From: Escherichia coli
Lineage (GTDB): Bacteria > Pseudomonadota > Gammaproteobacteria > Enterobacterales > Enterobacteriaceae
Length of the DNA: 64,000 nt
Assembly (NCBI RefSeq): GCF_044324785.1
Contig: NZ_CP172127.1
Direction: 5' to 3' (one strand)
The position numbers were made by a program, and so were the translations under genes. Under the pieces are notes generated by a model. The model searched no databases, was not told the DNA's origin, and saw nothing but the letters and a program-made list of their open reading frames with translations. The first letter of the stretch is position 1, and every line of letters begins with the position of its first letter. Shown here piece after piece: positions 1 to 32,315 of this stretch.

Positions 1-495
1 GCGGTGGTTGAAGGTCTGGAAGGATCGTTAAACGTACCGGTTAGCGAAACGGTGATGTGGACTAATAACATCACTTATATGCTGAAGAGTGAAAACAAAA
101 CCACGGGCGACCGTTTGTCGATCATCCCGGAGTATACGTTGAACTCAACGCTGAGCTGGCAGGCACGGGAAGATTTGTCGATGCAAACAACCTTCACCTG
201 GTACGGCAAGCAGCAGCCGAAGAAGTACAACTATAAAGGTCAGCCAGCGGTTGGACCGGAAACCAAAGAAATCAGCCCGTACAGCATTGTTGGCCTGAGC
301 GCGACCTGGGATGTAACGAAGAATGTCAGTCTGACCGGCGGCGTGGACAACCTGTTCGACAAACGTTTGTGGCGTGCGGGTAATGCCCAGACCACAGGCG
401 ATCTGGCAGGAGCCAACTATATCGCCGGTGCCGGGGCATATACCTATAACGAGCCGGGACGTACGTGGTATATGAGCGTAAACACTCACTTCTGA
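1..495 (+). CDS. fepA: Ferrienterobactin TonB-dependent outer-membrane receptor FepA, C-terminal fragment (gene starts upstream of window)
   Basis: ORF 4..495 is open to the window edge; translation ends ...GRTWYMSVNTHF, typical TonB-dependent receptor C-terminal barrel with terminal aromatic residue; followed by entD as in the E. coli ent/fep cluster. Confidence 0.8.
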   Translation, partial: AVVEGLEGSLNVPVSETVMWTNNITYMLKSENKTTGDRLSIIPEYTLNSTLSWQAREDLSMQTTFTWYGKQQPKKYNYKGQPAVGPETKEISPYSIVGLSATWDVTKNVSLTGGVDNLFDKRLWRAGNAQTTGDLAGANYIAGAGAYTYNEPGRTWYMSVNTHF

Positions 496-506
496 TGCTA
501 ACGCTT

Positions 507-529
507 CCTCCCCCGATATTTGGGGGAGG
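507..529 (+). terminator. GC-rich hairpin (CCTCCCCC-loop-GGGGGAGG) between fepA and entD; possible attenuator/terminator
   Basis: Perfect 8-bp inverted repeat seen directly in sequence 12 nt after the fepA stop; no strong U-tract, so only a weak terminator. Confidence 0.3.
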
Positions 530-544
530 AATAATATAGTTGAC

Positions 545-1165
545 ATGAAAACTACGCATACCGCCCTCCCCTTTGCCGGACATACGCTGCATTTTGTTGA
601 GTTCGATCCGGCGAGTTTTCGCGAGCAGGATTTACTCTGGCTGCCACACTACGCACAACTGCAACACGCTGGACGTAAACGTAAAACAGAGCATTTAGCT
701 GGACGAATCGCTGCTGTTTATGCCTTGCGGGAATATGGCTATAAATATGTGCCCGCTATCGGCGAGCTACGCCAACCTGTGTGGCCTGCGGAGGTATACG
801 GCAGTATTAGCCACTGCGGGACTACGGCATTAGCCGTGGTATCTCGTCAACCGATTGGCATTGATATCGAAGAGATTTTCTCTGTACAAACCGCAAGAGA
901 ATTGACAGACAACATTATTACACCAGCAGAACACGAGCGACTCGCAGAATGCGGTTTAACCTTTTCTCTGGCGCTAACACTGGCATTTTCCGCCAAAGAG
1001 AGCGCATTTAAGGCATCGGAGAGACAAACTGATGCAGGATTTCTGGATTATCAGATAATTAGCTGGAATAAACAGCAGATCATCATTCGACTAGAGGATG
1101 AGCAGTTTGCTGTGCACTGGCAGATAAAAGAAAAAATAGTCATAACGCTGTGCCAACACGATTAA
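545..1165 (+). CDS. entD: Enterobactin synthase phosphopantetheinyl transferase EntD
   Basis: 206-aa ORF immediately downstream of fepA; sequence recognised as EntD (4'-phosphopantetheinyl transferase family). Confidence 0.8.
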   Translation: MKTTHTALPFAGHTLHFVEFDPASFREQDLLWLPHYAQLQHAGRKRKTEHLAGRIAAVYALREYGYKYVPAIGELRQPVWPAEVYGSISHCGTTALAVVSRQPIGIDIEEIFSVQTARELTDNIITPAEHERLAECGLTFSLALTLAFSAKESAFKASERQTDAGFLDYQIISWNKQQIIIRLEDEQFAVHWQIKEKIVITLCQHD

Positions 1166-1286
1166 TTGACGACATCTGGTACGATTCGCCCGCAGCCATC
1201 ACCGACCACGGGCGAAAGTGTAAAGCAGGTGCCTTACCACCCTGACCTGACAACCGGATATGCGGGGATTACTCCCCGCACAACGG

Positions 1287-1439
1287 CTACTTCTTCGGTT
1301 CGTAAGCGAGAACAGCCTTAAACTCAATATTACGTTCCTTCACCGTAAACTCACACAGCGAGTCTCCGACCAGAAGCGTAAATCCCAGTACCGTCAAACA
1401 CAGCACTATGACTGCCACAAGGGCATATTTCGTCAGCAT
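1287..1439 (-). CDS. hokE: Hok-family type I toxin (HokE-like), copy 1, 50 aa
   Basis: C-terminal 50 aa of ORF 1287..1583(-): [50 protein letters not shown]; single TM helix, conserved Hok-family Cys; longer in-frame upstream ORF resembles the overlapping mok arrangement. Confidence 0.75.
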
Positions 1440-1788
1440 GTTTATATTGCCTCCATGCGAAGAAGGGACTACCATCCAAATTGTCTGGTTTGGAGTGGCA
1501 GCCCCAGGGTTGATAGAAATATCTCCTGGGGCTTCATCTTTCCAGACCTCAGAGTAAACCTGAAACCGGAAAGCTTCAGGCACCCGCCGTTATCTTACCC
1601 TTCCTTAGCAAAATATCTGTTTATTTATACAGTGAGTCCTGTTTCGGACTTCTGTCGGCAAAACTCATCATTGCTCTTAAAACGAAATCGCCCGCAGCCA
1701 TTGCTGACCGCGGGCGAAAGTGTAAAACAGGTGCCTTACCACCCTAACCTGACAACCGGATATGCGGGGATTACTCCCCGCACAACGG

Positions 1789-1941
1789 CTACTTCTTCGG
1801 TTCGTAAGCGAGAACAGCCTTAAACTCAATATTACGTTCCTTCACCGTAAACTCACACAGCGAGTCTCCGACCAGAAGCGTAAATCCCAGCACCGTCAAA
1901 CACAGCACTATGACTGCCGCAAGGGCATATTTCGTCAGCAT
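1789..1941 (-). CDS. hokE: Hok-family type I toxin (HokE-like), copy 2, 50 aa (V8A relative to copy 1)
   Basis: C-terminal 50 aa of ORF 1789..1977(-): [50 protein letters not shown]; lies in the second copy of the tandem repeat. Confidence 0.7.
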
Positions 1942-2375
1942 GTTTATATTGCCTCCATGCGAAGAAGGGACTACCATCCAAATTGTTTGGGTTTGGAGTG
2001 GCAGCCCCAGGGTTGATAGAAATATCGTCCTGGGGCTTCATCTTTCCAGACCTCAGAGTAAACCTGAAACCGGAAAGCTTCAGACACCCGCCGTTATCTT
2101 ACCCTTCCTTAGCAAAATAGCTGTTTATTTATACAGTAAGTCCTGTTTCGGACTTCTCAATCCTCATTTGATCAACTGAAGCTGAACCCGTTTTTTTCTG
2201 CATGCCTCAATCGTCAAAATTCTTCGCCACCAGTCCGCACTGCCATAACTTGTCATATTGCAAAATGTAGCCAATTTGCTTCAGTCACCATCACCAAAAA
2301 AAAGAAACATTCCAGAACTTCCGCATCTCGCCCAGTCGCTCCCACTTCTATACTGAATAGAAAACGCCAACATAA

Positions 2376-3503
<1,128 letters not shown>

Positions 3504-3568
3504 GCCGGGAATTGCCTTACAGAAGAATATCCCTGACAATGGTGTTTTAACTTACATTTAACAATGTT

Positions 3569-3817
3569 ATGAAACACCCTTTAGAAACCTTGACCACCGC
3601 AGCAGGCATTTTGCTGATGGCTTTCCTTTCTTGCCTGCTGCTGCCCGCCCCCGCACTGGGGCTGACGCTGGCACAAAAACTGGTGACCATGTTCCATCTG
3701 ATGGATCTTAGCCAGCTTTACACTTTATTGTTTTGTCTGTGGTTTTTAGTGCTGGGCGCTATTGAGTATTTTGTTCTGCGCTTTATCTGGCGACGCTGGT
3801 TCTCGCTGGCGGATTAA
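3569..3817 (+). CDS. ybdJ: Small inner-membrane protein YbdJ (DUF1158)
   Basis: 82-aa hydrophobic ORF between ybdK and ybdF, same length and order as K-12. Confidence 0.65.
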
Positions 3818-3881
3818 ACGTCGATTATCGCCGTACTTCGCGGCATACTTTGCTTATTCTCCTTCGCCTAAAGGAACGTTT

Positions 3882-4250
3882 ATGGATAAGCAATCACTGC
3901 ACGAAACGGCGAAACGCCTGGCCCTTGAGTTACCCTTTGTCGAGCTTTGCTGGCCTTTTGGCCCGGAGTTCGATGTTTTTAAAATTGGCGGCAAGATTTT
4001 TATGCTGTCGTCAGAGCTGCGCGGCGTCCCCTTTATCAATCTGAAGTCCGATCCACAAAAATCCCTGTTAAATCAGCAAATATACCCGAGCATCAAGCCA
4101 GGGTATCACATGAATAAAAAGCACTGGATTTCAGTGTATCCCGGCGAGGAAATCTCCGAAGCGTTACTTAGCGATCTGATCAACGATTCGTGGAATCTGG
4201 TGGTTGATGGTCTGGCTAAACGCGATCAAAAAAGAGTGCGTCCAGGCTAA
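3882..4250 (+). CDS. ybdF: Conserved protein YbdF (DUF419)
   Basis: ORF 3762..4250; internal ATG at 3882 preceded by AAGGAA gives 122 aa ([12 protein letters not shown]...), matching K-12 YbdF length. Confidence 0.65.
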
Positions 4251-4343
4251 AGCGGAAATCTATAGCGCATTTTTCTCGCTTACCATTTCTCGTTGAACCT
4301 TGTAATCTGCTGGCACGCAAAATTACTTTCACATGGAGTCTTT

Positions 4344-4997
4344 ATGGATATCATTTCTGTCGCCTTAAAGCGTCATTCCACTAAGGCATTTGATGCCAGC
4401 AAAAAACTTACCCCGGAACAGGCCGAGCAGATCAAAACTCTCCTGCAATACAGCCCATCCAGTACCAACTCCCAGCCGTGGCATTTTATTGTTGCCAGCA
4501 CGGAAGAAGGTAAAGCGCGTGTTGCCAAATCCGCTGCCGGTAATTACGTGTTCAACGAGCGTAAAATGCTTGATGCCTCGCACGTCGTGGTGTTCTGTGC
4601 AAAAACCGCGATGGACGATGCCTGGCTGAAGCTGGTTGTTGACCAGGAAGATGCCGATGGCCGCTTTGCCACGCCAGAAGCGAAAGCCGCGAACGATAAA
4701 GGTCGCAAGTTCTTCGCTGATATGCACCGTAAAGATCTGCATGATGATGCGCAGTGGATGGCAAAACAGGTTTATCTCAACGTCGGTAACTTCCTGCTCG
4801 GCGTGGCGGCTCTGGGTCTGGACGCGGTACCCATCGAAGGTTTTGACGCCGCCATCCTCGATGAAGAATTTGGTCTGAAAGAGAAAGGCTACACCAGTCT
4901 GGTGGTTGTTCCGGTAGGTCATCACAGCGTTGAAGATTTTAACGCTACGCTGCCGAAATCTCGTCTGCCGCAAAACATCACCTTAACCGAAGTGTAA
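4344..4997 (+). CDS. nfsB: Oxygen-insensitive NAD(P)H nitroreductase NfsB
   Basis: ATG at 4344 preceded by GGAG; 217 aa [31 protein letters not shown]..., recognised as NfsB. Confidence 0.85.
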
Positions 4998-5005
4998 TTC
5001 TCTCT

Positions 5006-5023
5006 TGCCGGGCATCTGCCCGG
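5006..5023 (+). terminator. Hairpin GCCGGGCA-TCTGCCCGGC downstream of nfsB; likely terminator
   Basis: Inverted repeat seen 9 nt after the nfsB stop, followed by TATTTCCCC. Confidence 0.4.
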
Positions 5024-5056
5024 CTATTTCCCCTCAGATTCTCCTGATTTGCATAA

Positions 5057-6352
<1,296 letters not shown>

Positions 6353-6360
6353 TTAAAAAA

Positions 6361-6390
6361 ACCGCTCTCATCGAATGGATGAGAGCGGAC
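6361..6390. terminator. Bidirectional hairpin (CCGCTCTCATC-GAATG-GATGAGAGCGG) between convergent ybdG and pheP
   Basis: 11-bp perfect inverted repeat seen in sequence between two convergent genes, flanked by A-run and T-run. Confidence 0.5.
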
Positions 6391-6419
6391 ATCGTTTTGT
6401 CGGATGTAGCGTGAATGCC

Positions 6420-7796
6420 TTATTTCCGACGCAGCGTTTTAAATGCTACAAACAGGAATACAATCCACACCGGCAGCAGAATCGCTGACAAGCGCATATC
6501 ATCCATCGTGCACATCAGCAGCAAAATCATGCCGAGGAAAGCGATGCAGAGATAGTTGCCGAACGGATAGAGCAGCGCCTTAAACTGTGTTTCACGTCCC
6601 TGACGTCGCATCGCCGCGCGAAAACGCAGATGCGCCAGGCAGATCATAATCCAGTTCAATAGCAGCGTTGCTACCACCAGCGCCATCAGCAGACCAAACG
6701 CTTTTTGCGGCAGCAGATAGTTGATTAACACCACCAGCGAAGTGATGGCTCCGGAAAGCATCAGCGAGTTAATCGGCACACCGCGACGGCTGACGCGAGT
6801 CAAAAACTTCGGCGCATTACCCTGCACAGAAAGGCCAAACAGCATGCGGCTGTTAGAGTAAACCCCGCTGTTATACACTGACAGCGATGCTACCAGAATG
6901 ACGAAGTTCAGCGCAGAAGCTACCACGTTGCTGTCGAGATTATGGAAAATCATCACAAACGGGCTACTGTTGGATTTCACTTCCACCCACGGATAGAGCG
7001 CCAGTAAAACCACCAGTGAACCGATGTAAAACAGCAGGATGCGATACACCACCTGATTTACCGCTTTTGGAATGCTTTTTTCCGGATCGCGCGCTTCAGC
7101 GGCAGTAATCCCAATCAGCTCCAGACCGCCGAAGGAGAACATAATTACCGCCAGCGACAAAATCAGCCCATTCCAGCCGGTGGCGAAGAAACCACCGTAG
7201 CGCCAGAGGTTGTCGATACTGGCTTTCTCGCCGCCGTGACCAGAAAACAGCAGCCACAGGCCAAAGCCGATCATACCGATGATTGCCAGCACTTTAATCA
7301 GCGCAAACCAGAACTCGGTTTCGCCATATAAGCGCACGTTCACCAGGTTAACGGCGTTGATGATAATAAAGAAGGCGGCAGCCCAAATCCACGTTGGAAC
7401 ATCCGGGAACCAGTACTGCATATAGATGCCCGCAGCGGTCAGCTCTGCCATTCCCACCAGCACGAACATTACCCAGTAGTTCCAGCCAGAGAGGAAGCCC
7501 GCAAACGGTCCCCAGTATTTATAGGCAAAGTGGGCAAATGAACCGGATACCGGCTCTTCGACCACCATCTCGCCGAGCTGGCGCATAATCAGGAAAGCGA
7601 TGATCCCGGCGACGCCGTAGCCCAGCAATACAGCCGGACCCGCCATCTGAATCGCCGGGCCAATGCCAAGAAACAGACCAGTACCAATTGCGCCACCCAG
7701 CGCAATCAGTTGAATATGACGGTTATGTAATCCGCGATGAAGCGTCGGCTCTTGATTCGACGCAGTATCTTCCGATACGGTTGACGCGTTTTTCAC
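6420..7796 (-). CDS. pheP: Phenylalanine-specific permease PheP (APC family)
   Basis: ORF 6420..7832(-); GTG at 7796 gives 458 aa VKNASTVSEDTASNQEPTLHRGLHNRHIQ..., matching PheP. Confidence 0.8.
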   Translation of the reverse strand: MKNASTVSEDTASNQEPTLHRGLHNRHIQLIALGGAIGTGLFLGIGPAIQMAGPAVLLGYGVAGIIAFLIMRQLGEMVVEEPVSGSFAHFAYKYWGPFAGFLSGWNYWVMFVLVGMAELTAAGIYMQYWFPDVPTWIWAAAFFIIINAVNLVNVRLYGETEFWFALIKVLAIIGMIGFGLWLLFSGHGGEKASIDNLWRYGGFFATGWNGLILSLAVIMFSFGGLELIGITAAEARDPEKSIPKAVNQVVYRILLFYIGSLVVLLALYPWVEVKSNSSPFVMIFHNLDSNVVASALNFVILVASLSVYNSGVYSNSRMLFGLSVQGNAPKFLTRVSRRGVPINSLMLSGAITSLVVLINYLLPQKAFGLLMALVVATLLLNWIMICLAHLRFRAAMRRQGRETQFKALLYPFGNYLCIAFLGMILLLMCTMDDMRLSAILLPVWIVFLFVAFKTLRRK

Positions 7797-19461: not shown

Positions 19462-22400
19462 ATGAGTGAAGGACCAGGCGGGCCACAGGGAGCGACCGCA
19501 GGCGGTACGCTGGCAATGCGAATGCTGTCACAGCAGGCGATGGTCGCCAGCCAGATGAAACGGGCAGCCAACGACAAAGCCATTGCACAGATGTTGGCAT
19601 CAAAAAAGTCTGGCCCCCCCGCCGCCAGGCTGGGCGATGAAATTCAGCACAAGAGTTTTTTGGGGGCGCTGGCAGGGGCCGTGCTGGGGGCGATAGTGAC
19701 CATCGCAGAAGGTTGCCTGATTATCGCCGCCTGTGCCACCGGCCCTTATGCGCTGGTTCTGGTGCCTGCGCTGATGTATGCCAGCTATAAGGCGAGTGAT
19801 TATGTGGAGGAGAAACAGAACCAGCTTGAATCCTGGATAAACAGCTTTTGTGACAAGGACGGGGCCATCAATACTGGTTCTAAAAATGTAAACATTAACG
19901 GAAAGCCCGCTGCCAGGGCCGCCGTCACACTTCCCCCTCCTCCCCTGACTGAAGCAATACCCTCTCCACCACAGGGGGAACCTTCATGGGGGGATATTGC
20001 CACTGACCTGCTTGAATCGGCAGCGGAAAAAGCAGTGCCACTGGCGAAGGCCTGGGGGAACGCTGTTATCACCCTGACGGACAGCAATGCCAGTTTTATG
20101 GATCGCTTATGTGCAGGCACATCGCTTCTGTTTCCCTACGGCCCGGTATTAATGGAGTTTGCCACCATGGTGGGCGGGCGTGGCGAAATCAAAAAAGACG
20201 TGGATTTCCCGGAAGCCGGTGAAGACACGGCGCTCTGCGACAAGGAGACTAAACCGCCGAGGATAGCCCAGGGCAGCAGCAACGTCTTCATCAACAATCA
20301 GCCTGCCGCGCGCAAGGGCGACAAACTGGAGTGCAGCGCGGCAATCGTGGAAGGTTCGCCGGACGTCTTTATTGGGGGTGAGCAGGTCACCTATCTGGAT
20401 ATCCAGCCGGAGTTCCCGCCGTGGCAGAGAATGATCCTGGGGGGAATAACGATAGCCAGCTATCTTCTGCCGCCAGCGGGACTGCTGGGAAAAATGAAGA
20501 ATCTGGCGAGACTCGGCAAACTGGGAAACCTGCTGGGGAAAAGCGGGAAGCTGCTGGGCGCAAAACTCGGCGCATTGCTGAGCAGAACAAAAAATGCCCT
20601 GAAAAATACGTATAACGTCCTGAAAAAGTTTATCAAAGATCCGGTTGACCCGGTAACCGGCGCGTACTGCGACGAACGTACCGACTTCACCCTGGGCCAG
20701 ACCCTCCCCCTCTCCTTCACCCGTTTCCACAGTTCTGTACTGCCACTGCATGGCCTGACGGGCGTGGGCTGGAGCGACTCCTGGAGCGAATACGCCTGGG
20801 TGCGTGAACAGGGAAACCGGGTGGATATCATCAGCCAGGGAGCCACGCTGTACTTTGCCTTCGACGGAGACAGTGATACGGCGGTTAACCCGTATCACGC
20901 CCAGTATATCCTGCGCCGCCGCGACGATTACCTGGAGCTGTTCGACCGTGATGCCCTGAGCAGCCGCTTCTTTTATGACGCCTTTCCGGGAATGCGCCTG
21001 CGCCACCAGGTGACCGGCGATACCAATGATGACCGCCTGGCACACAGCCCCGGTGACCGGATGTACATGCTGGGCGGAATGAGTGACACCGCCAGCAACC
21101 GCATCACGTTTGAGCGCGACAGTCAGTACCGGATCACGGGTGTCAGTCACACCGACGGGATCCGGCTTAAACTGACGTACCACGCCAGCGGCTACCTGAA
21201 AGCCATTCACCGCACGGATAACGGCATACAGACGCTGGCGACCTACGAACAGGACGAACGGGGACGGCTGACAGAAGCGGATGCGCGGCTGGACTACCAC
21301 CTGTTTTATGAGTACGACGATGCGGACCGGATCATCCGCTGGTCCGATAACGACCAGACGTGGAGCCGTTTCACCTACGATGCACAGGGCCGGTGCGTGA
21401 CCGTCACCGGGGCGGAAGGCTATTACAACGCCACGCTGGACTATGGTGACGGCTGCACTTCCGTGACGGACGGCAAGGGCATTCACCGTTATTACTATGA
21501 TCCTGACGGCAATATCCTGCGGGAAGACGCGCCGGACGGCAGTACCACCACGTATGAATGGGATGAATTCCATCACCTGCTGGCCCGCCACTCCCCTGCC
21601 GGACGGGTGGAGAAATTTGAATACAACGCCGTACACGGTCAGTTAAGCCGTTACACGGCGGCAGACGGCGCGGTGTGGCAGTACCGCTATGATGAGCGCG
21701 GCCTGCTCAGCAACATCACCGACCCTGCCGGGCAGACGTGGACACAGCAGTGTGATGAACGCGGCCTGCCGGTAAGTCTGGTGTCGCCACAGGGCGAAGA
21801 GACCCGGCTGGCGTACACGCCACAGGGGCTGCTGTCGGGGATATTCCGCCAGGATGAACGGCGTCTGGGCATAGAGTACGACCACCACAACCGGCCGGAA
21901 ACACTCACCGACGTGATGGGCCGTGAACACCACACCGAATACAGCGGTCACGACCTGCCGGTGAAGATGCGCGGCCCCGGCGGTCAGTCAGTGCGGTTAC
22001 AGTGGCAGCAGCACCATAAACTGAGTGGCCTTGAGCGGGCAGGAACCGGCGCGGAAGGATTCCGCTACGACCGCCACGGCAACCTGCTGGCGTACACGGA
22101 CGGTAACGGCGTTGTCTGGACAATGGAATACGGCCCGTTCGATTTGCCGGTGGCGCGAACGGACGGTGAAGGCCACCGCTGGCAGTACCGCTACGATAAA
22201 GACACGCTGCAACTGACAGAAGTCATCAATCCGCAGGGTGAGTCATACCGTTATATTCTCGACAACTGTGGCCGGGTGACGGAAGAGCGTGACTGGGGCG
22301 GCGTGGTCTGGCGTTACCGCTATGACGCCGATGGCCTGTGTACCGCCAGGGTTAACGGCCTGGAGGAAACTATCCTCTACAGCCGGGACGCCGCAGGCCG

Positions 22401-24324
22401 CCTGGCAGAAGTCATCACCCCGGAAGGCAAAACGCAGTATGCGTATGACAAATCCGGCAGGCTGACGGGTATCTTCAGCCCGGACGGCACATCACAGCGC
22501 ACCGGCTACGACGAACGCGGGCGGGTGAATGTCACCACTCAGGGCAGACGGGCCATTGAGTACCACCACCCCGATGAACACACCGTTATCCGCTGTATCC
22601 TGCCACCGGAAGATGAACGCGACAGACACCCCGGTGAATCCCTGCTGAAAACCACCTACCGCTACAACGCCGCCGGAGAACTGACGGAGGTTATCCTGCC
22701 GGGGGATGAGACGCTGACGTTCAGCCGTGATGAGGCAGGACGTGAAGTGCTCCGGCACAGTAACCGGGGTTTTGCCTGTGAACAGGGCTGGAATGCAGCC
22801 GGTCAGCTTACCAGCCAGCGCGCCGGATTTTTCCCGGCGGAAGCCACATGGGGCGGACTGCTCCCCTCACTGGTGCGGGAGTACCGTTACGACAGCGCGG
22901 GCAATGTGTCGGCTGTCACCAGCCGGGAAGACTACGGACGGGAAACACGGCGGGAGTACCGGCTGGACCGGAACGGCCAGGTCACAACGGTGACAGCCTC
23001 AGGCACCGGGCTGGGCTATGGCGAAGGCGACGAGACTTATGGCTATGACAGCTGCGGCTACCTGAAGGCGCAGTCTGCGGGCAGGCACCGGATAAGTGAA
23101 GAGACTGACCAGTATGCCGGAGGCCACCGGCTGAAACAGGCCGGAAACACGCAGTATGACTATGACGCCGCAGGCCGGATGGTCAGCCGCACCAGACACC
23201 GTGACGGCTACCGCCCGGAAACAGAGCGGTTCCGGTGGGACAGCCGGGACCAGCTGACCGGGTATTGCAGCGCACAGGGGGAGCAGTGGGAATACCGCCA
23301 CGACGCCAGCGGCAGGCGGACGGAAAAACGCTGCGACCGGAAGAAAATCCGTTTTACGTACCTGTGGGACGGCGACAATATTGCGGAAATCCGGGAATAC
23401 CGCGATGATAAACTGTACAGCGTACGGCACCTGGTGTTTAACGGCTTTGAGCTGGTAAGCCAGCAGTGCAGCCGGGTACGGCAGGCGCATCCGTCCGTGG
23501 CCCCGCAGTGGGTGACGCGAACGAATTATGCGGTGAGCGACCTGACAGGCCGCCCGCTGATGCTCTTTAACAGTGAAGGTAAAACCGTCTGGCGGCCGGG
23601 ACAGACCAGCCTGTGGGGGCTGGCACTCAGCCTGCCCGCAGACACCGGCTACCCGGACCCGCGCGGGGAACTGGACCCGGAAGCCCCCCCCGGCCTGCTG
23701 TATGCGGGACAGTGGCAGGATACGGAATCGGGGCTGTGCTATAACCGGTTCCGGTATTACGAGCCGGAAACCGGAATGTACCTGGTGAGTGATCCGCTGG
23801 GGTTGCAGGGAGGTGAGCAGACTTACCGGTATGTGCCTAATCCTTGTGGGTATGTTGATCCGCTGGGGCTGGCAAAAACCAGTATTATAAAATCTTCTAC
23901 AGGCAAAATCCCACAAGGGTTAACAAAAAGCGAATTTGAGATTTTTTCAAAAAAATTAAAGGATGTATTAGCCCGAGAGGGAATCTCGACAGAGAATGTG
24001 TTTGTACATGGCAGTAGAGCCAGAGGAGATGCTGTATCAGGTGTTTCAGATATTGATATAAAAGTGATCCTTAGTGATAAAGATTTTGGTGCCTTTGCAG
24101 CAAGACGTATTGCTGAGTCCTCAGGAAGGACTCGAAATTTAATCAGGAAGGCCGTTGCTAAAAATCAAAAAATAAATTCAAGAGGAATTTCTAAAACTTT
24201 TGAATCTACTGTATGGGATGAGGTTTTCACTACCTTACCAAAAGGTGAGTTTTCAAGCATTCAAGTTTCTGTTATGACCAAAACTTCACCATTCAACACT
24301 AATCCGAGTATTATATTACCATGA
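19462..24324 (+). CDS. rhs: Rhs-family polymorphic toxin: prePAAR motif + TM helices + PAAR domain + YD-repeat shell + DPxGL boundary + 150-aa C-terminal nucleotidyltransferase-like toxin domain
   Basis: 1620-aa ORF; N-terminal AARLGDEIQH (AARxxDxxxH prePAAR) then hydrophobic helices; PAAR region GSSNVFINNQPAARKGDKLECSAAIVEGSPDVFIGG; many YD repeats; core ends VSDPLGLQGGEQTYRYVPNPCGYVDPLGL; C-terminal domain is much more AT-rich and contains VHGSRARGDAVSGVSDIDIKV. Confidence 0.9.
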   Translation: MSEGPGGPQGATAGGTLAMRMLSQQAMVASQMKRAANDKAIAQMLASKKSGPPAARLGDEIQHKSFLGALAGAVLGAIVTIAEGCLIIAACATGPYALVLVPALMYASYKASDYVEEKQNQLESWINSFCDKDGAINTGSKNVNINGKPAARAAVTLPPPPLTEAIPSPPQGEPSWGDIATDLLESAAEKAVPLAKAWGNAVITLTDSNASFMDRLCAGTSLLFPYGPVLMEFATMVGGRGEIKKDVDFPEAGEDTALCDKETKPPRIAQGSSNVFINNQPAARKGDKLECSAAIVEGSPDVFIGGEQVTYLDIQPEFPPWQRMILGGITIASYLLPPAGLLGKMKNLARLGKLGNLLGKSGKLLGAKLGALLSRTKNALKNTYNVLKKFIKDPVDPVTGAYCDERTDFTLGQTLPLSFTRFHSSVLPLHGLTGVGWSDSWSEYAWVREQGNRVDIISQGATLYFAFDGDSDTAVNPYHAQYILRRRDDYLELFDRDALSSRFFYDAFPGMRLRHQVTGDTNDDRLAHSPGDRMYMLGGMSDTASNRITFERDSQYRITGVSHTDGIRLKLTYHASGYLKAIHRTDNGIQTLATYEQDERGRLTEADARLDYHLFYEYDDADRIIRWSDNDQTWSRFTYDAQGRCVTVTGAEGYYNATLDYGDGCTSVTDGKGIHRYYYDPDGNILREDAPDGSTTTYEWDEFHHLLARHSPAGRVEKFEYNAVHGQLSRYTAADGAVWQYRYDERGLLSNITDPAGQTWTQQCDERGLPVSLVSPQGEETRLAYTPQGLLSGIFRQDERRLGIEYDHHNRPETLTDVMGREHHTEYSGHDLPVKMRGPGGQSVRLQWQQHHKLSGLERAGTGAEGFRYDRHGNLLAYTDGNGVVWTMEYGPFDLPVARTDGEGHRWQYRYDKDTLQLTEVINPQGESYRYILDNCGRVTEERDWGGVVWRYRYDADGLCTARVNGLEETILYSRDAAGRLAEVITPEGKTQYAYDKSGRLTGIFSPDGTSQRTGYDERGRVNVTTQGRRAIEYHHPDEHTVIRCILPPEDERDRHPGESLLKTTYRYNAAGELTEVILPGDETLTFSRDEAGREVLRHSNRGFACEQGWNAAGQLTSQRAGFFPAEATWGGLLPSLVREYRYDSAGNVSAVTSREDYGRETRREYRLDRNGQVTTVTASGTGLGYGEGDETYGYDSCGYLKAQSAGRHRISEETDQYAGGHRLKQAGNTQYDYDAAGRMVSRTRHRDGYRPETERFRWDSRDQLTGYCSAQGEQWEYRHDASGRRTEKRCDRKKIRFTYLWDGDNIAEIREYRDDKLYSVRHLVFNGFELVSQQCSRVRQAHPSVAPQWVTRTNYAVSDLTGRPLMLFNSEGKTVWRPGQTSLWGLALSLPADTGYPDPRGELDPEAPPGLLYAGQWQDTESGLCYNRFRYYEPETGMYLVSDPLGLQGGEQTYRYVPNPCGYVDPLGLAKTSIIKSSTGKIPQGLTKSEFEIFSKKLKDVLAREGISTENVFVHGSRARGDAVSGVSDIDIKVILSDKDFGAFAARRIAESSGRTRNLIRKAVAKNQKINSRGISKTFESTVWDEVFTTLPKGEFSSIQVSVMTKTSPFNTNPSIILP

Positions 24325-24671
24325 AGAAAAAAGATATTAGATTTGCAATATCCATTAACTCCAACTTAAGTAAGATAGAATTAATGGAAAAAATTAAAAA
24401 TATAATCCCAGGGCTTATTGAAATAACTTCCAGTGCATTAAGAGAAGAAAAAAACATGGTAGTTATTGAAGAAAATGATCTTTATGACCCTATAAAAGCA
24501 GAGGGAGCTGATGGATGGATGTATTATAAATTCATATTATCCATATTCCCATTAAAGGGAGTGGAAACAACATTAGAATATCAACGGGAATTATCTTTTC
24601 TTTTCTTAAAGAAAATAAAAGATGCGGGCCTGTTGGGTGAACTTATATGCGAGGATGATTTTCATGACTGA
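24321..24671 (+). CDS. Putative cognate immunity protein (RhsI) for the Rhs C-terminal toxin
   Basis: 116-aa AT-rich ORF whose ATG overlaps the rhs stop (ATGA); position and composition typical of Rhs immunity genes; no recognisable domain. Confidence 0.6.
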   Translation: MKKKDIRFAISINSNLSKIELMEKIKNIIPGLIEITSSALREEKNMVVIEENDLYDPIKAEGADGWMYYKFILSIFPLKGVETTLEYQRELSFLFLKKIKDAGLLGELICEDDFHD

Positions 24672-24729: not shown

Positions 24730-24883
24730 TCGTGGCGAAATCAAAAAAGACGTGGATTTCCCGGAAGCCGGTGAGGACACGGCGCTCTGCGACAAGGAGA
24801 ACAAACCACCGAGGATAGCCCAGGGCAGCAGCAACGTCTTCATCAACAATCAGCCTGCCGCACGCAAAGGGGACAAACTGCAG
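24730..24883 (+). pseudogene. Displaced 154-bp fragment of the rhs PAAR-encoding region
   Basis: Near-identical to main rhs 20177-20329 (GEIKKDVDFPEAGEDTALCDKE.KPPRIAQGSSNVFINNQPAARKGDKL); preceded by CAGGGAAAGATC at 24718-24729 and truncated by the IS left end at 24881. Confidence 0.8.
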
Positions 24884-26171
24884 GGAAAGATCACGTAACG
24901 CTGCTTTTTTGTACTAAATAATTCGCATTTTATGTTTAAAAATTGAGATATTCCTCATTACCTAAAGCTGTTTTTTATTGCTTATACATGATCAAATACT
25001 CCTTACATAATTAAGGAGAACAAAATGGAACTTAAAAAATTGATGGAACATATTTCTGTTATCCCCGATTACAGACAAGCATGGAAAGTAGAACATAAAT
25101 TGTCAGATATTCTACTGTTGACTATTTGCGCCGTCATTTGTGGTGCAGAAGGCTGGGAAGATATAGAGGATTTTGGTGAAACACATCTCGATTTTTTGAA
25201 GCAATATGGTGATTTTGAAAATGGTATTCCTGTCCACGATACCATTGCCAGAGTTGTATCCTGTATCAGTCCTGCAAAATTTCACGAGTGCTTTATTAAC
25301 TGGATGCGAGATTGCCATACTTCAGATGATAAAGACGTTATTGCAATCGATGGAAAAACACTCCGGCATTCTTATGACAAGAGTCGCCGCAGGGGAGCGA
25401 TTCATGTCATTAGTGCGTTCTCAACAATGCACAGTCTGGTCATCGGACAGATCAGGACGGATGAGAAATCTAATGAGATTACAGCTATCCCAGAACTTCT
25501 TAACATGCTGGATATTAAAGGAAAAATCATCACAACTGATGCGATGGGTTGCCAGAAAGATATTGCAGAGAAGATACAAAAACAGGGCGGTGATTATTTA
25601 TTCGCTGTAAAAGGAAATCAGGGGCGGCTTAATAAAGCCTTTGAGGAAAAATTCCCACTGAAAGAATTAAATAATCCAGAGCATGATAGTTACGCAATTA
25701 GTGAAAAGAGTCACGGCAGAGAAGAAATCCGACTTCATATTGTTTGCGATGTCCCTGATGAACTTATTGATTTCACGTTTGAATGGAAAGGGCTGAAGAA
25801 ATTATGCATAGCAGTCTCCTTTCGCTCAATAATAGCAGAGCAAAAGAAAGAGCCAGAAATGACGGTCAGATATTATATCAGTTCTGCTGATTTAAACACA
25901 GAAAAGTTCGCCACAGCAATCCGAAACCACTGGCACGTGGAGAATAAGCTGCACTGGCGTCTGGATGTGGTAATGAATGAAGACGACTGCAAAATAAGAA
26001 GAGGAAATGCAGCAGAATTATTTTCAGGGATACGGCACATCGCTATTAATATTTTGACGAATGATAAGGTATTCAAGGCAGGGTTAAGACGTAAGATACG
26101 AAAAGCAGCTATGGACAGAAACTACATGGCGTCAGTCCTTGCGGGGAGCGGGCTTTCGTAATCTTTCCCTG
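24881..26171 (+). mobile_element. ISAs1-family insertion sequence (Rhs H-repeat element), copy 1, ~1.29 kb
   Basis: Terminal inverted repeats CAGGGAAAGAT... (left) and ...ATCTTTCCCTG (right); contains a 378-aa transposase ORF; second copy at 31026-32315. Confidence 0.8.
25025..26161 (+). CDS. ISAs1-family transposase (H-repeat-associated protein, YhhI/YdcC/YbfD-like)
   Basis: 378-aa [40 protein letters not shown]...; recognised as the H-rpt protein family of Rhs elements. Confidence 0.85.
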
Positions 26172-26174
26172 GAC

Positions 26175-26396
26175 ATGACGATTATTGTTCGTTCAAATCC
26201 GAGTAAAGCCGCTATTCTTGAAGAATTTTTACATGGTACACAAGAGAAACTAGGAATAGCTGAAAAATTAGGACGTTATGGACTAGGGAGTGCAGAAACG
26301 CACGTTAAGGATTTCATGATAAGACACAAAAAAATGCTTGGGTTATCTGATGAGGATGTAGCAATACTCAAAATATTGAAAGACAAGGGGTTGTGA
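26175..26396 (+). CDS. Hypothetical small protein (73 aa from MTIIV...); possibly the remnant C-terminus of a toxin domain truncated by the IS
   Basis: ORF 26139..26396 continues in frame across the IS right end; first ATG after the IS at 26175; AT-rich; stop overlaps next ORF start (ATGA). Confidence 0.3.
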   Translation: MTIIVRSNPSKAAILEEFLHGTQEKLGIAEKLGRYGLGSAETHVKDFMIRHKKMLGLSDEDVAILKILKDKGL

Positions 26397-26683
26397 TGAA
26401 TATAATTCTGCCGATAAAAGATATATTTATTATTGCGGGAAACATAGTTTTTAGCGTTTTATACAATGAACATATTGAGTTCCCATGCCGCTGCCAATTA
26501 CTATCTTCAAATTCTGAAGTTATGCAAGAGTTATATATTGAAAAAGAGTTATTTATTAAACGCACTACAGAAAATGATTGTCGTGCTTTAGTGTTAAGAG
26601 GAACATTGGAATACTTATTTGATGAAATTATTGCTGGCGATTGTGCATTGGCCTTATTACAAAAAGAAATAAAAAAAGATTAA
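26393..26683 (+). CDS. Hypothetical AT-rich protein, candidate orphan immunity protein
   Basis: 96-aa ORF translationally coupled to the upstream ORF by ATGA overlap; very AT-rich; no recognisable domain. Confidence 0.35.
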   Translation: MMNIILPIKDIFIIAGNIVFSVLYNEHIEFPCRCQLLSSNSEVMQELYIEKELFIKRTTENDCRALVLRGTLEYLFDEIIAGDCALALLQKEIKKD

Positions 26684-26895
26684 TCCAATATGTAGAACTG
26701 GACAATACCCATCTTTTAACAATGAACTTCGTAATTTTTATCTTAGAAATAATGCTACATTATATGAGGTATATCATGAAGTAATTCATGCCAAGCAATT
26801 TGCGAAAATATTTCTATCGGAGGTGCTGATGCACCATCTAATATGAGACTTATGGATATAATGACACATACAACTCATCATAAATATTACAGGCC

Positions 26896-27264
26896 TTGGG
26901 AATGATAAATAAAATAGTGAAAAAAATGTTGGTTTCATATAGCCCTAAGAAACCGGAGTCTAGGGGCGGGGATTTTGTTATTCCGTTGTTTTTTAATGAG
27001 AAAGTTTCTTTTTTTAGCATAAAAAGTGGCAAGCCAGTGCGATATGGTCTTATGGTATTTACAGGGAAAGTAATTACCATAGATGATATTCTTAGTAAAG
27101 TTCGTTTTCCTGATGTTATGAATGAGCAAAATATTCAACCGTTAATTGACTTTATTAATAACATTAGCGATTTTAAAATAGGGGATGTTATTGAAATTGA
27201 TGATAATGGTAAATTGAAAGTTGTGCCAAAATCAGCAGGACACCCTGTGAGTAAATTGCCATGA
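26896..27264 (+). CDS. Hypothetical AT-rich protein, candidate orphan immunity protein
   Basis: 122-aa ORF immediately upstream of the orphan rhs fragment; AT-rich; no recognisable domain. Confidence 0.35.
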   Translation: MGMINKIVKKMLVSYSPKKPESRGGDFVIPLFFNEKVSFFSIKSGKPVRYGLMVFTGKVITIDDILSKVRFPDVMNEQNIQPLIDFINNISDFKIGDVIEIDDNGKLKVVPKSAGHPVSKLP

Positions 27265-27289
27265 TACTTAAGGGGCCTGATTTTCTGTT

Positions 27290-30051
27290 TTTGCCAGTGG
27301 GACGAATACCATCACCTGCTGGCGAGGCTGTCTCCGGCAGGACGGCTGGAAAAGTTTGACTATCATCTGACACTCGGTCAGTTAAGCCGTTACACGGCGG
27401 CAGACGGCGCGGAGTGGCAGTACCGCTATGATGAGCGCGGCCTGCTCAGCAACATCACCGACCCTGCCGGGCAGACGTGGACACAGCAGTGCGATGAACG
27501 CGGCCTGCCGGTGAGTCTGGTGTCGCCACAGGGCGAAGAGACCCGGCTGGCGTACACCGCTCAGGGGCTGCTGTCGGGGATATTCCGCCAGGATGAACGG
27601 CGTCTGGGCATAGAGTACGACCACCACAACCGGCCGGAAACACTCACCGACGTGATGGGCCGTGAACACCACACCGAATACAGCGGTCACGACCTGCCGG
27701 TGAAGATGCGCGGCCCCGGCGGTCAGTCAGTGCGCTTACAGTGGCAGCAGCACCATAAACTGAGCGGCATTGAACGTGCTGGAACCGGCGCGGAAGGATT
27801 TCGCTATGACCGCCACGGCAACCTGCTGGCCTGGACGGACGGCAACGGTGTTGACTGGACAATGGAATACGGCCCGTTTGATTTGCCGGTGGCGCGAACG
27901 GACGGTGAAGGCCACCGCTGGCAGTACCGCTACGATAAAGACACGCTGCAACTGACAGAAGTCATCAATCCGCAGGGCGAGTCATACCGTTATATTCTCG
28001 ACAACTGTGGGCGGGTGACGGAAGAGCATGACTGGGGCGGCGTGGTCTGGCGTTACCGCTATGACGCCGATGGTCTGTGTACCGCCAGGGTTAACGGCCT
28101 GGAGGAAACCATCCTCTACAGCCGGGACGCCGCAGGCCGCCTGGCAGAAGTCATCACCCCGGAAGGGAAAACGCAGTATGCGTATGACAAATCCGGCAGG
28201 CTGACGGGTATCTTCAGCCCGGACGGCACATCACAGCGCACCGGCTACGACGAACGCGGGCGGGTGAATGTCACCACTCAGGGCCGACGGGCCATTGAAT
28301 ACCACCACCCCGATGAACACACCGTCATCCGCTGTATCCTGCCACCGGAAGATGAACGCGACAGACACCCCGGTGAATCCCTGCTGAAAACCACCTACCG
28401 CTACAACGCCGCCGGAGAACTGACGGAGGTTATCCTGCCGGGGGATGAGACGCTGACGTTCAGCCGTGATGAGGCAGGACGTGAAGTGCTCCGGCACAGT
28501 AACCGGGGTTTTGCCTGTGAACAGGGCTGGAATGCAGCCGGTCAGCTTACCAGCCAGCGCGCCGGATTTTTCCCGGCGGAAGCCACATGGGGCGGACTGC
28601 TCCCCTCACTGGTGCGGGAGTACCGTTACGACAGCGCGGGCAATGTGTCGGCTGTCACCAGCCGGGAAGACTACGGACGGGAAACACGGCGGGAGTACCG
28701 GCTGGACCGGAACGGCCAGGTCACAACGGTGACAGCCTCAGGCACCGGGCTGGGCTATGGCGAAGGCGACGAGACTTATGGCTATGACAGCTGCGGCTAC
28801 CTGAAGGCGCAGTCTGCGGGCAGGCACCGGATAAGTGAAGAGACTGACCAGTATGCCGGAGGCCACCGGCTGAAACAGGCCGGAAACACGCAGTATGACT
28901 ATGACGCCGCAGGCCGGATGGTCAGCCGCACCAGACACCGTGACGGCTACCGCCCGGAAACAGAGCGGTTCCGGTGGGACAGCCGGGACCAGCTGACCGG
29001 GTATTGCAGCGCACAGGGGGAGCAGTGGGAATACCGCCACGACGCCAGCGGCAGGCGGACGGAAAAACGCTGCGACCGGAAGAAAATCCGTTTTACGTAC
29101 CTGTGGGACGGCGACAATATTGCGGAAATCCGGGAATACCGCGATGATAAACTGTACAGCGTACGGCACCTGGTGTTTAACGGCTTTGAGCTGGTAAGCC
29201 AGCAGTGCAGCCGGGTACGGCAGGCGCATCCGTCCGTGGCCCCGCAGTGGGTGACGCGAACGAATTATGCGGTGAGCGACCTGACAGGCCGCCCGCTGAT
29301 GCTCTTTAACAGTGAAGGTAAAACCGTCTGGCGGCCGGGACAGACCAGCCTGTGGGGGCTGGCACTCAGCCTGCCCGCAGACACCGACTACCCGGACCCG
29401 CGCGGGGAGCTGGACCCGGAAGCCGACCCCGGCCTGCTGTATGCAGGACAGTGGCAGGATACGGAATCAGGGCTGTGCTATAACCGGTTCCGGTACTACG
29501 AGCCGGAAACCGGAATGTACCTGGTGAGTGATCCGCTGGGGTTGCAGGGGGGTGAGCAGACTTACCGGTATGTGCCGAATCCTTTAAGATATAAAGATTT
29601 CTATGGGCTTAGTAAGAGTTCAATAATAACGAGAGGAAAGAATGCTGGTCATGGCTATGCAGCCAGCGTTACACCTGGAGGCAAAGGTACGGTGTTGGCT
29701 GGTCACGGAGGATCAAAATTTGGCGATAAAATGATTATACCAGAAGGCGTATCGATAACGATGCCGAGAGATGGTATTAAAATATCAGATATGACTGGAA
29801 AATTACTGGAATCTGGTAATGTGGATGATATAATTAAAGCTGCAAGTAATAATCCTCGTGTAGCTAGCGATCTTGAAGGTTGGGTTACTTATTTGCCCGG
29901 CACTGAAATCCCTGATTATATTTTAAAACCACCCACCAATCTTAACATACTGGAAAATTCAGTAACGGTGAACACTTCAACTTATTTATCTCAAATGGTA
30001 AATGCTGGTCAAGGTAATGTAATCTGGGCTGCATGCACCGAATTTTTTTAA
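27290..30051 (+). pseudogene. rhs: Orphan rhs module: 3' part of the rhs core (no in-frame start; reading frame opens at 27255) fused to an alternative ~155-aa C-terminal toxin domain
   Basis: Homology to main rhs begins ~27290 (main 21565) and is near-identical from 27385; frame has a stop at 27252-27254 and no ATG until 27511; core ends ...DPLGLQGGEQTYRYVPNP then diverges (LRYKDFYGLSKSSIITRGKNAGHGYAAS...). Confidence 0.8.
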
Positions 30052-30065
30052 CGCGGGGTAATCGT

Positions 30066-30548
30066 ATGTATTTTAAAGATGATACTGACTATACATATTT
30101 CCTTCCTAATGAATATTTTTTACACGGGGTGAAAAATGTGGGCTGGATAGACAGAGAACACCCCTTCACAAAAGGGATTAGTGACGCTGAATTTATTGAA
30201 AAGTTAAAAGCAATAATTCTAACAGAGAATGAAGCAACTTGTTTTTCAGTTAATAAAATAAGAGGATTTCACAAATGTAATTTTTGCAATAGTGAAATGA
30301 TAACAATAACCGATGGAAGAAAAAAAGGATACCTTGGCATGAGTGAAATATGGATTCCATCCATCCACCATAATGAGTATTACGCGTTTCCTTCATTAAT
30401 TTTCCATTATATAACATCTCACATGTATAGACCACCAGAGGACTTTATTGTATCTGTTTTAAACTTGAATTTAAGCGAGAGTTTTTGCGCTCAAAACATA
30501 TATGACAATAAAATTAAGGAATTAAAAATAGACTTCTGGTTTCGTTAA
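30066..30548 (+). CDS. Putative immunity protein for the orphan Rhs C-terminal domain
   Basis: ATG at 30066, 15 bp after the orphan rhs stop; 160 aa, AT-rich, contains CNFCN and His-rich segment; no recognisable domain. Confidence 0.5.
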   Translation: MYFKDDTDYTYFLPNEYFLHGVKNVGWIDREHPFTKGISDAEFIEKLKAIILTENEATCFSVNKIRGFHKCNFCNSEMITITDGRKKGYLGMSEIWIPSIHHNEYYAFPSLIFHYITSHMYRPPEDFIVSVLNLNLSESFCAQNIYDNKIKELKIDFWFR

Positions 30549-30567
30549 AGCTGGTAATTTAACTTAT

Positions 30568-30660
30568 CGGGAATACCGCTATGATGGCAGTTTCAGACGG
30601 ACGGAGAAATGCTGTCAGCAAAAAGACTTCCGCTTCGCGTATCTGTGGGGCATGGGGATA
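30568..30660 (+). pseudogene. Short fragment of a divergent rhs core 3' region
   Basis: Translates to EYRYDGSFRRTEKCCQQKDFRFAYLWG, resembling but not identical to the resident core EYRHDASGRRTEKRCDRKKIRFTYLWDG. Confidence 0.5.
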
Positions 30661-30726
30661 ATTTATCTTCATCAATTGATATATTGATTAATGGCAAGGA
30701 GGCCATTGAAATTCCGTAAGGCCAAC

Positions 30727-30912
30727 TTGATATGACGCCTGGCACACAGCCCCGGTGACCGGATGTATATGCTGGGCGGGATGAGCGACACCGCCAGCAA
30801 CCGCATCACGTTTGAGCGCGACAGCCAGTACCGGATCACGGGTGTCAGTCACACCGACGGGATCCGGCTTAAACTGACGTACCACGCCAGCGGCTACCTG
30901 AAAGCCATTCAC
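30727..30912 (+). pseudogene. Rhs core fragment (copy of main rhs ~21040-21225) truncated by an IS left end
   Basis: Encodes RLAHSPGDRMYMLGGMSDTASNRITFERDSQYRITGVSHTDGIRLKLTYHASGYLKAIHR, near-identical to the main rhs; followed by CAGGGAAAGATCACG at 30915. Confidence 0.8.
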
Positions 30913-30914
30913 CG

Positions 30915-31025
30915 CAGGGAAAGATCACGTAACGCTGCTTTTTTGTACTAAGCAATTCGCATTTTATGTTCAGTATTTGAGATACTCCTTATAACACAAA
31001 CCTGTTTTTCATAGCTTATATATGT
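30915..31025 (+). repeat. Partial duplicate of the ISAs1 left end (~110 bp) upstream of the complete copy 2
   Basis: CAGGGAAAGATCACGTAACGCTGCTTTTTTGTACTAA... matches the IS left end, then a second left end begins at 31026. Confidence 0.7.
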
Positions 31026-32315
31026 AGGAAAAGATCACGTAACGCTCCTTTTTTGTACTAAATAATTCGCATTTTATGTTTAAAAATTGAGATATTCCTC
31101 ATTACCTAAAGCTGTTTTTTATTGCTTACACATGATCAAATACTCCTTACATAATTAAGGATAACAAAATGTAACTTAAAAAATTGATGGAACATATTTC
31201 TATTATCCCCGATTACAGACAAGCCTGGAAAGTGGAACATAAATTATCGGATATTCTACTGTTGACTATTTGTGCCGTTATTTCGGGTGCAGAAGGTTGG
31301 GAAGATATAGAGGATTTTGGGGAAACACATCTCGATTTTTTAAAACAATATGGTGATTTTGAAAATGGTATTCCTGTTCACGATACCATTGCCAGAGTTG
31401 TATCCTGTATCAGCCCTGCAAAATTTCACGAGTGCTTTATTAACTGGATGCGAGATTGCCATACTTCAGATGATAAAGACGTCATCGCAATTGATGGAAA
31501 AACACTCCGGCATTCTTATGGCAAGAGTCGCCGCAGGGGAGCGATTCATGTCATTAGTGCGTTCTCAACAATGCACAGTCTGGTCATCGGACAGATCAGG
31601 ACGGATGAGAAATCCAATGAAATTACAGCTATCCCTGAACTTCTTAACATGCTGGATATTAAAGGAAAAATCATCACAACTGATGCAATGGGTTGCCAGA
31701 AAGATATTGCAGAGAAGATACAAAAACAGGGCGGTGATTATTTATTCGCTGTAAAAGGAAATCAGGGGCGGCTTAATAAAGCCTTTGAGGAAAAATTTCC
31801 ACTGAAAGAATTAAATAATCCAGAGCATGACAGTTACGCCATTAGTGAAAAGAGTCACGACAGAGAAGAAATCCGTCTTCATATTGTTTGCGATGTCCCT
31901 GATGAACTTATTGATTTCACGTTTGAATGGAAAGGACTGAAGAAATTATGCGTGGCAGTCTCCTTTCGGTCAATAATAGCAGAACAAAAGAAAGAGCCAG
32001 AAATGACGGTCAGATATTATATCAGTTCTGCTGATTTAACCGCAGAGAAGTTCGCCACAGCAATCCGAAACCACTGGCACGTGGAGAATAAGCTGCACTG
32101 GCGTCTGGACGTGGTAATGAATGAAGACGACTGCAAAATAAGAAGAGGAAATGCAGCAGAATTATTTTCAGGGATACGGCACATCGCTATTAATATTTTG
32201 ACGAATGATAAGGTATTCAAGGCAGGGTTAAGACGTAAGATGCGAAAAGCAGCCATGGACAGAAACTATCTCGCGTCAGTCCTTGCTGGGAGCGGGCTTT
32301 CGTAATCTTTCCCTG
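31026..32315 (+). mobile_element. ISAs1-family insertion sequence (H-repeat element), copy 2, direct orientation relative to copy 1
   Basis: Same terminal sequences as copy 1 (left GGAAAAGATCACG, right ATCTTTCCCTG); transposase ORF inside. Confidence 0.8.
31187..32305 (+). CDS. ISAs1-family transposase (H-repeat protein), copy 2
   Basis: 372 aa from ATG 31187; the upstream ATG of copy 1 is followed here by TAA (ATGTAA), so this copy starts at the internal Met; a few substitutions relative to copy 1. Confidence 0.8.

Follow-up and report, generated by a model that had tools for sequence, protein, structure and literature searches.

Is the rhs sequence that lies, without a start codon, downstream of a complete rhs gene in an Escherichia coli island a worn-out copy, or is it a toxin/immunity module that can still be brought into use? 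We analysed a 64,000-nt stretch of E. coli DNA (contig NZ_CP172127.1; "the window", positions being counted from its first letter) in which an intact PAAR-Rhs gene, the main rhs, is followed by a second rhs core that ends in a different C-terminal toxin domain (CT) and by a small open reading frame (ORF). The original prediction, made from the sequence of the window, took this block for a displaced orphan toxin/immunity module, and all sequence-level features of such a module are indeed present. The block is very probably an orphan rhs-CT/immunity module, with a CT of the Stv family and an immunity gene of the DUF7919 family, and we further consider it likely that it serves as a silent cassette of the vgrG-Rhs island according to the mechanism outlined below.

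The evidence starts with the repeat itself. In a blastn comparison positions 21559-23845 of the main rhs recur on the + strand at 27298-29584, i.e. in the same orientation and 5,739 bp apart, with 97.4% identity over 2,289 columns or, when aligned without gaps, 62 mismatches in 2,287 nt, which refines the earlier estimate that a copy of the main gene from about 21565 onward starts at about 27290. Homology begins at codon 700 of the main gene, and the matches in other E. coli genomes likewise begin at 27298. The copied core scores above the NCBIfam cut-offs for YD repeats (TIGR01643) and for the Rhs-associated core (TIGR03696; 60.2 bits as compared with a cut-off of 32.5, orphan residues 721-782), and at the boundary between core and CT the GC content drops from ~62% to ~37%. 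The DPLGL motif at the end of the core, part of the PxxxxDPxGL boundary that the orphan keeps, is the expected site of C-terminal autoproteolysis, which after re-arming would free the CT from the Rhs cage, a role carried over from established knowledge of Rhs/TcC proteins. Comparing the orphan with the main gene codon by codon, with the junction excluded, revealed 37 synonymous and 16 non-synonymous differences; this bias is no proof of selection in place, since it could have been inherited from a past as part of a full gene.

What the orphan lacks is a beginning. Its open frame comprises 929 codons (27265-30051, with a TAA stop at 30049-30051) and is closed upstream, as had been predicted, but by a TGA at 27262-27264, the TAA at 27252-27254 to which the closure had been ascribed being in another frame. 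The earliest in-frame codon of a start type is a GTG at 27511 and the earliest ATG follows at 27655, so that the claim of an ATG-free frame up to 27511 holds while 27511 itself is not an ATG, and no Shine-Dalgarno sequence was found ahead of either candidate. The orphan thus has neither an N-terminal delivery region (PAAR etc.) nor a usable start codon, and the upstream in-frame start that would have made it an independent gene is absent. The TGA is shared with the stop of the unrelated ORF 26896-27264. A start by readthrough from this ORF was rejected as a coincidence of frame, with a chance of one in three, because the ORF is an unrelated AT-rich gene.

The same arrangement is known from the rhs-CT(orphan)/rhsI(orphan) module of Salmonella Typhimurium LT2 (STM0292; PMC3967940, PMC7043789), where a start-less rhs fragment also lies downstream of a full-length rhs of a type VI secretion system (T6SS), in the same orientation, and where core homology likewise extends up to DPxGL before the sequence changes to another CT with an immunity gene of its own. 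The LT2 orphan is redeployed through homologous recombination with the main gene (PMC3967940). The two loci differ in that the shared homology is four times longer in the window (2,287 bp at 97% versus 522 bp at 95% in LT2), that the CT belongs to another family, Stv, that the internal P2 promoter of Salmonella is not conserved, and that the stretch from main to orphan copy includes insertion elements of the ISAs1 family as well as scraps of other modules, so that a deletion product would lose 5.7 kb. The type of module is therefore already known, and its tip belongs to a named but functionally uncharacterised family.

The AT-rich CT, whose sequence of 155 amino acids (aa; 29584-30048) had been quoted exactly, was originally described as having no assignable motif. 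This does not hold, as a Pfam profile search matches the CT to Stv (PF21527) with an E-value of 1.7e-12 and 48.5 bits over model positions 2-121 of 121. The 160-aa ORF at 30066-30548 was confirmed to follow after a gap of 14 nt and matches DUF7919 (PF25535; E-value 4.1e-34, 117.9 bits, model positions 1-125 of 126). The earlier statement that both are functionally unassigned is thus only half right, as both belong to named Pfam families. In NCBIfam neither the CT nor the immunity protein nor any of the small ORFs nearby matched a family. An exhaustive search retrieved 389 representative Stv homologues, whereas a word-indexed search with the CT alone returned 5 proteins only. The length of the carrier proteins varies from ~140 to 3,827 aa. 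Among the 88 matches with full coverage nearly all have the Stv domain ending no more than about 10 residues from the C-terminus (5 residues or fewer in 70 of them, tails of 12-29 residues in four).

Within the Stv alignment of 89 sequences H41 is found in all and C151 in 87; H41, G42 and G144 are invariant, Trp148-Ala-Ala-Cys151 is nearly so, and conservation is strong at Glu76 and Asp69. The CT of the window keeps all conserved residues, with His41 (29704-29706) located in AGHGG and Cys151 (30034-30036) in WAAC. In its AlphaFold2 (AF2) model, which has a predicted local distance difference test score (pLDDT) of 91, strands 37-39 and 144-149 lie directly before His41 and Cys151, respectively, so that TVLAGHG and NVIWAAC resemble the motifs of clan CD peptidases in each following a hydrophobic β-strand. 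Clan CD was reportedly defined by Chen et al. in 1998 through this very order, His-Gly ... Ala-Cys, each after a hydrophobic block or β-strand. The His-Gly/Ala-Cys logic of clan CD is thus present in Stv, fold-level membership not being established; the relatives for comparison are caspases, the cysteine protease domain (CPD; Peptidase C80) of MARTX/TcdB and "Tox-Caspase" (Zhang et al. 2012, PMC3482391).

Stv would most likely be a Cys-dependent hydrolase, peptidase or amidase, that acts via His41 and Cys151, and a toxin with a caspase/CPD-like His-Cys dyad has been proposed independently (bioRxiv 10.1101/2022.08.23.504947). Our assignment of a His-Cys hydrolase chemistry is nevertheless tentative and falls somewhat short of even confidence. 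The spacer between His and Cys speaks against it, as it comprises 109 residues in the CT versus ~40-50 in clan CD, about twice the usual length, and the peptidase reading therefore rests on motif logic. Foldseek gave no matches of the CT model in the PDB, nothing was found with the Stv profile in PDB sequences or by hhalign against caspase-3, and phmmer and profile searches of PDB sequences with Stv and DUF7919 yielded nothing meaningful.

With the Pfam family Stv, known from the Shigella plasmid pSTV, the window CT shares the full-length match to the hidden Markov model, the extreme C-terminal position and the conserved His and Cys. The Shigella protein, however, is encoded by a plasmid gene that stands alone and for which no partner has been reported (10.1101/2022.08.23.504947), whereas the window Stv forms the tip of an Rhs protein with DUF7919 behind it. 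The authors of that preprint associate Stv with the epidemiological success seen in Shigella lineages without assigning a function, and their AlphaFold screen, which led to fimbrial partners, together with the RefSeq name "putative adhesin", would fit a reading of Stv as an adhesin or host-directed factor to which DUF7919 is unrelated. However, the name was never validated according to the same source, Stv is always located at the tip position of polymorphic toxins, after Rhs or FHA/DUF637 delivery regions, and the same small cytoplasmic protein lies next to it in 11 of 12 loci. Moreover, the coding sequence that carries this name in the RefSeq annotation of N3, the genome that matches the window best among 5,426 complete E. 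coli genomes (98.8% over 27000-30700), extends over L001 14731-15051, corresponding to window 29731-30051; it begins at Met50 of the CT, lacks His41 and is thus an annotation artefact. We consider an adhesin extremely unlikely. The 107-aa "putative adhesin" entries of Superficieibacter and Salmonella resemble the same truncated gene call on orphan tips.

The position of DUF7919 supports the view that the two proteins belong together. It is encoded by the next gene after Stv in 11 of the 12 loci examined, namely in the window, in Superficieibacter, behind two FHA/DUF637 (CdiA-type) proteins, behind an Enterovibrio protein, behind giant Rhs proteins of 2,500 and 3,827 aa, on two Ralstonia megaplasmids, on a Streptomyces anulatus plasmid and behind a metagenomic stand-alone Stv. 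The adjacency is seen from Proteobacteria to Streptomyces, whether Stv is carried by an Rhs protein, by one of the FHA/CdiA type or stands alone, and supports the conclusion that Stv and DUF7919 are probably a cognate toxin-immunity pair. We did not find this pairing in the literature searched; Rhs-Stv architectures have already been described in the preprint on Stv, in which the DUF7919 partnership is absent and the word "immunity" occurs 0 times (10.1101/2022.08.23.504947).

A profile search for DUF7919 gave 115 clusters, and in an alignment of 58 sequences D5, G26, W27, C71, H114, H119, Y121 and P123 are invariant while C74 and E94 are nearly so. The resulting CxxC...HxxxxH signature (C71, C74, H114, H119) suggests a metal site. 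The AF2 model of the window protein reaches a pLDDT of 95, and neither a signal peptide nor a transmembrane or hydrophobic segment is present in its sequence (maximum Kyte-Doolittle value over 19 residues, 0.99). The protein should therefore be cytoplasmic, which in turn suggests that the target of the toxin resides in the cytoplasm.

Several observations weigh against a strict pairing. One Stv locus (L016), the only exception among the 12, has no DUF7919, and for the founding Shigella stv plasmid of 2,689 bp mobA and rop were reported as the sole other genes, with "no addiction systems" (10.1101/2022.08.23.504947), so that Stv may not always need an immunity protein; a tblastn search from the CT with E-values up to 5 did not find the pSTV stv gene in the plasmid collection, the Shigella protein being too distant for it. 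Conversely, the three most distant DUF7919 members examined (L012-L014, including those of Kitasatospora and Blastocatellia) have no adjoining Stv, and these solitary proteins may either have a role outside immunity or be stand-alone immunity genes. DUF7919 thus occurs alone in Actinobacteria and Acidobacteria.

An immunity protein can be an enzyme, as exemplified by the ADP-ribosylhydrolase Tri1. By analogy, Stv/DUF7919 could be a widespread toxin-immunity family in which Stv is a His-Cys enzyme of novel fold and DUF7919, as a zinc-binding protein, reverses or intercepts the toxin's modification enzymatically, an extension that we regard as improbable. In such a scenario Stv would be delivered by T6SS Rhs proteins, by carriers of the type V secretion system/contact-dependent inhibition type and by others. 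With DUF7919 as its likely cognate immunity protein, a factor that the locus provides, the question of Stv function becomes a simple problem of expression and rescue, and the conserved pairing also offers a complex for structural work.

If orphan toxin and immunity protein were expressed from a promoter inside the rhs core, they might instead constitute a type II toxin-antitoxin pair that modulates the growth of the producer. There is a precedent for this in the main and orphan CTs of Salmonella rhs, P2-like promoters have been reported in E. coli rhs genes (PMC7043789), the immunity gene must have some source of transcription, and promoter-like hexamers are found in the AT-rich CT at 29825-29853 and 29893-29922. 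In the orphan, however, the P2 hexamers of Salmonella, TTGACG/TACAAT, are replaced by CAGGAT/TATAAC, and a sigma-70 scan revealed 11 sites as compared with 8.0 ± 2.9 in shuffled sequence, i.e. no excess. In addition, no ATG, GTG or TTG occurs from DPLGL to His41, and the sole Met of the CT is residue 50, past the putative catalytic His. We consider such an internal pair highly unlikely.

Silent though it may be, the orphan seems to have exchanged sequence with the main rhs. The original prediction described the copies as near-identical after 27385, but the identity is a mosaic: it amounts to 78% at 27298-27400, 98% at 27401-27764 and 87% at 27765-27865, while 1,060 nt in a row (28327-29386) match perfectly. 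When as many mismatches were placed at random 100,000 times, a run of this length never arose (P<1e-5). The uneven identity argues for gene conversion or recombination between the rhs copies, and the perfect tract, on sequence grounds, indicates a recent gene conversion.

The distribution of the module in the 5,426 genomes is consistent with such exchange and at the same time speaks for decay. DNA of CT plus immunity gene was matched in 58 of them, but as a whole only in N3; the remaining 57 genomes match only from window position 29956 on, all with the same start point. In the three loci that were aligned, OkiPb01684 (L002), B19 (L003) and 25-06685 (L004), we identified a single common deletion junction, 28300|29956, which has an AAT microhomology, is out of frame and removes 1.66 kb, including His41 and ~124 of the 155 CT codons, but leaves DUF7919 intact. 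The 57 genomes thus appear to carry a deleted derivative of the same orphan that has lost the toxin and retained the immunity gene, a derivative that we did not find in the literature searched. In this set the toxin is thus present at full length in E. coli only in the form shared by the window and N3, and the other carriers, having the antidote only, would clearly exemplify how a toxin is lost in nature while immunity is kept. The main rhs of OkiPb01684 is uninterrupted as far as core position 22559, where it passes into the orphan deletion junction and DUF7919, suggesting that recombination between main and orphan copy has occurred naturally in this genome, with a dead product. Main-orphan recombination at the locus is thereby supported indirectly; neither the gene-conversion tract nor the recombinant was found in the literature searched. 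With 2.3 kb of homology, a conversion tract and a natural recombinant the locus is a good system for measuring toxin swapping.

These data have to be weighed against the view that the orphan is a decaying relic, the Stv half being a non-functional leftover of C-terminal displacement and DUF7919, as a stand-alone defence, the sole selected function. The orphan has no start codon, Shine-Dalgarno sequence or promoter, the toxin is gone from 57 of the 58 E. coli carriers, so that the module is mostly decaying in this species, the N3 copy, the only other full-length one, is annotated as frameshifted, and the surroundings of the block, with their ISAs1 copies and rhs scraps, point to ongoing erosion. 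On the other hand, the window has an intact 929-codon frame in which no conserved Stv residue is missing, the 1,060-nt identical tract suggests a copy that is still exchanging sequence with the main gene, and orphans of this kind have been demonstrated to be redeployable in Salmonella (PMC3967940). We therefore regard the relic as unlikely and prefer the silent cassette.

The mechanism that we propose for the silent cassette is as follows. The orphan toxin would not be made on its own but be kept as a spare tip, whereas the DUF7919 gene would be the part in current use, guarding the cell against competitors armed with Stv. RecA-type recombination or gene conversion over the 2.3-kb repeat would then replace the CT of the main Rhs (23846-24324), which has a nucleotidyltransferase fold (PF01909, E-value 3e-6; motif GSRARG...DIDIKV), by Stv. 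As a simple crossover between main and orphan copy deletes the main immunity gene, productive re-arming probably needs a prior duplication that keeps this gene, a route shown for Salmonella (PMC3967940). The chimeric PAAR-Rhs protein would be loaded onto VgrG with the help of a DcrB/Eag-like chaperone and fired by the T6SS; cleavage after DPLGL would release a Stv domain of ~170 aa into the cytoplasm of the target cell, where it would act as a cysteine-dependent hydrolase through His41 and Cys151, and kin cells would be protected by DUF7919, which would neutralise Stv by binding. As modules of this type are known, the Stv-DUF7919 pairing and the natural series of deletion and recombination are useful additions rather than surprises.

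Table 1. Features of the orphan rhs block and its surroundings in the window
Feature	Position	Strand	Description	Basis
Main PAAR-Rhs gene	19462-24324	+	intact, 1620 aa; recombination partner	ORF; PAAR domain NF033420
Copy of main PAAR region	24731-24880		150 nt, = 20179-20328 (95%); after main immunity gene, abuts ISAs1-family element	
ISAs1-family (H-rpt) element, upstream copy	24879-26171	+	378-aa ORF	N3 annotation
Three small AT-rich ORFs	26139-26396, 26393-26683, 26896-27264			ORF list
Unrelated AT-rich ORF	26896-27264	+	122 aa	no NCBIfam match
In-frame junction	27265-27297	+	11 codons, YLRGLIFCFCQ, without main rhs homology	codon-by-codon comparison, blastn
Orphan rhs core fragment	27298-29583	+	762 codons, YD repeats and Rhs-associated core; = main 21559-23844	
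DPLGL core-end motif	29530-29544	+	same in main copy	direct sequence reading
Stv-family C-terminal toxin domain	29584-30051	+	155 aa + stop	Pfam PF21527
Spacer	30052-30065	+	14 nt; GGGG Shine-Dalgarno-like run at 30055-30058	sequence
DUF7919 gene	30066-30548	+	160 aa, predicted cytoplasmic immunity protein	Pfam PF25535
rhs core scrap	30549-30660	+	diverged core end	translation, blastn
rhs core scrap	30732-30920	+	= main 21029-21218	translation, blastn
ISAs1-like ISEc1 element, downstream copy	31023-32315	+		N3 annotation, sequence comparison

The locus corresponds to the chromosomal vgrG/DcrB-like/PAAR-Rhs island of E. coli that extends from cusS to nfrB. In near-identical N3 the RefSeq annotation of the block lists VgrG, a DcrB-related protein, a PAAR/RHS protein, small ORFs, ISAs1 transposases and RHS fragments, the genes for VgrG and the DcrB-related protein preceding the main rhs. 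A 116-aa ORF (24321-24671) without a family match overlaps the stop of the main rhs and forms with the main CT a second uncharacterised toxin/immunity pair of the island.

The K-12 Rhs elements of E. coli comprise core extensions, downstream ORFs and H-rpt elements, which belong to the ISAs1 family, and a model of C-terminal displacement is said to have been put forward for Rhs by Jackson et al. in 2009. Like these elements, the window combines a GC-rich core with AT-rich tips, carries a downstream stack of displaced tips with their small ORFs and has H-rpt/ISAs1 copies within the array. The island of the window, however, represents the vgrG-linked PAAR-Rhs lineage at cusS-nfrB and not one of the K-12 rhsA-E loci, and its orphan core is unusually long.

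The two ISAs1 copies are 96.2% identical, lie in direct orientation and flank the orphan block, each following an rhs scrap; if they recombined with each other, the orphan toxin would be cut out along with DUF7919. The copy of the PAAR region in front of the upstream element looks like the scar of an earlier rearrangement. Further traces of displacement are found between this element and the orphan, where positions 26172-26777 are 99% identical to ORFs that follow a different orphan in OkiPb01684, and where N3 carries an annotated fragment of a zincin-like metallopeptidase toxin just upstream of ORF 26896-27264. This ORF probably encodes immunity to the zincin-like toxin, whose remnant would stem from an older displacement, and the small ORFs of 26139-27264 are remnants of at least one further displaced toxin/immunity module. 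Downstream of DUF7919, at the position of the two core scraps (30549-30920), OkiPb01684 and 25-06685 continue with a third orphan of 2.8 kb, and by this comparison the scraps would be the stump of that third orphan, severed by ISEc1.

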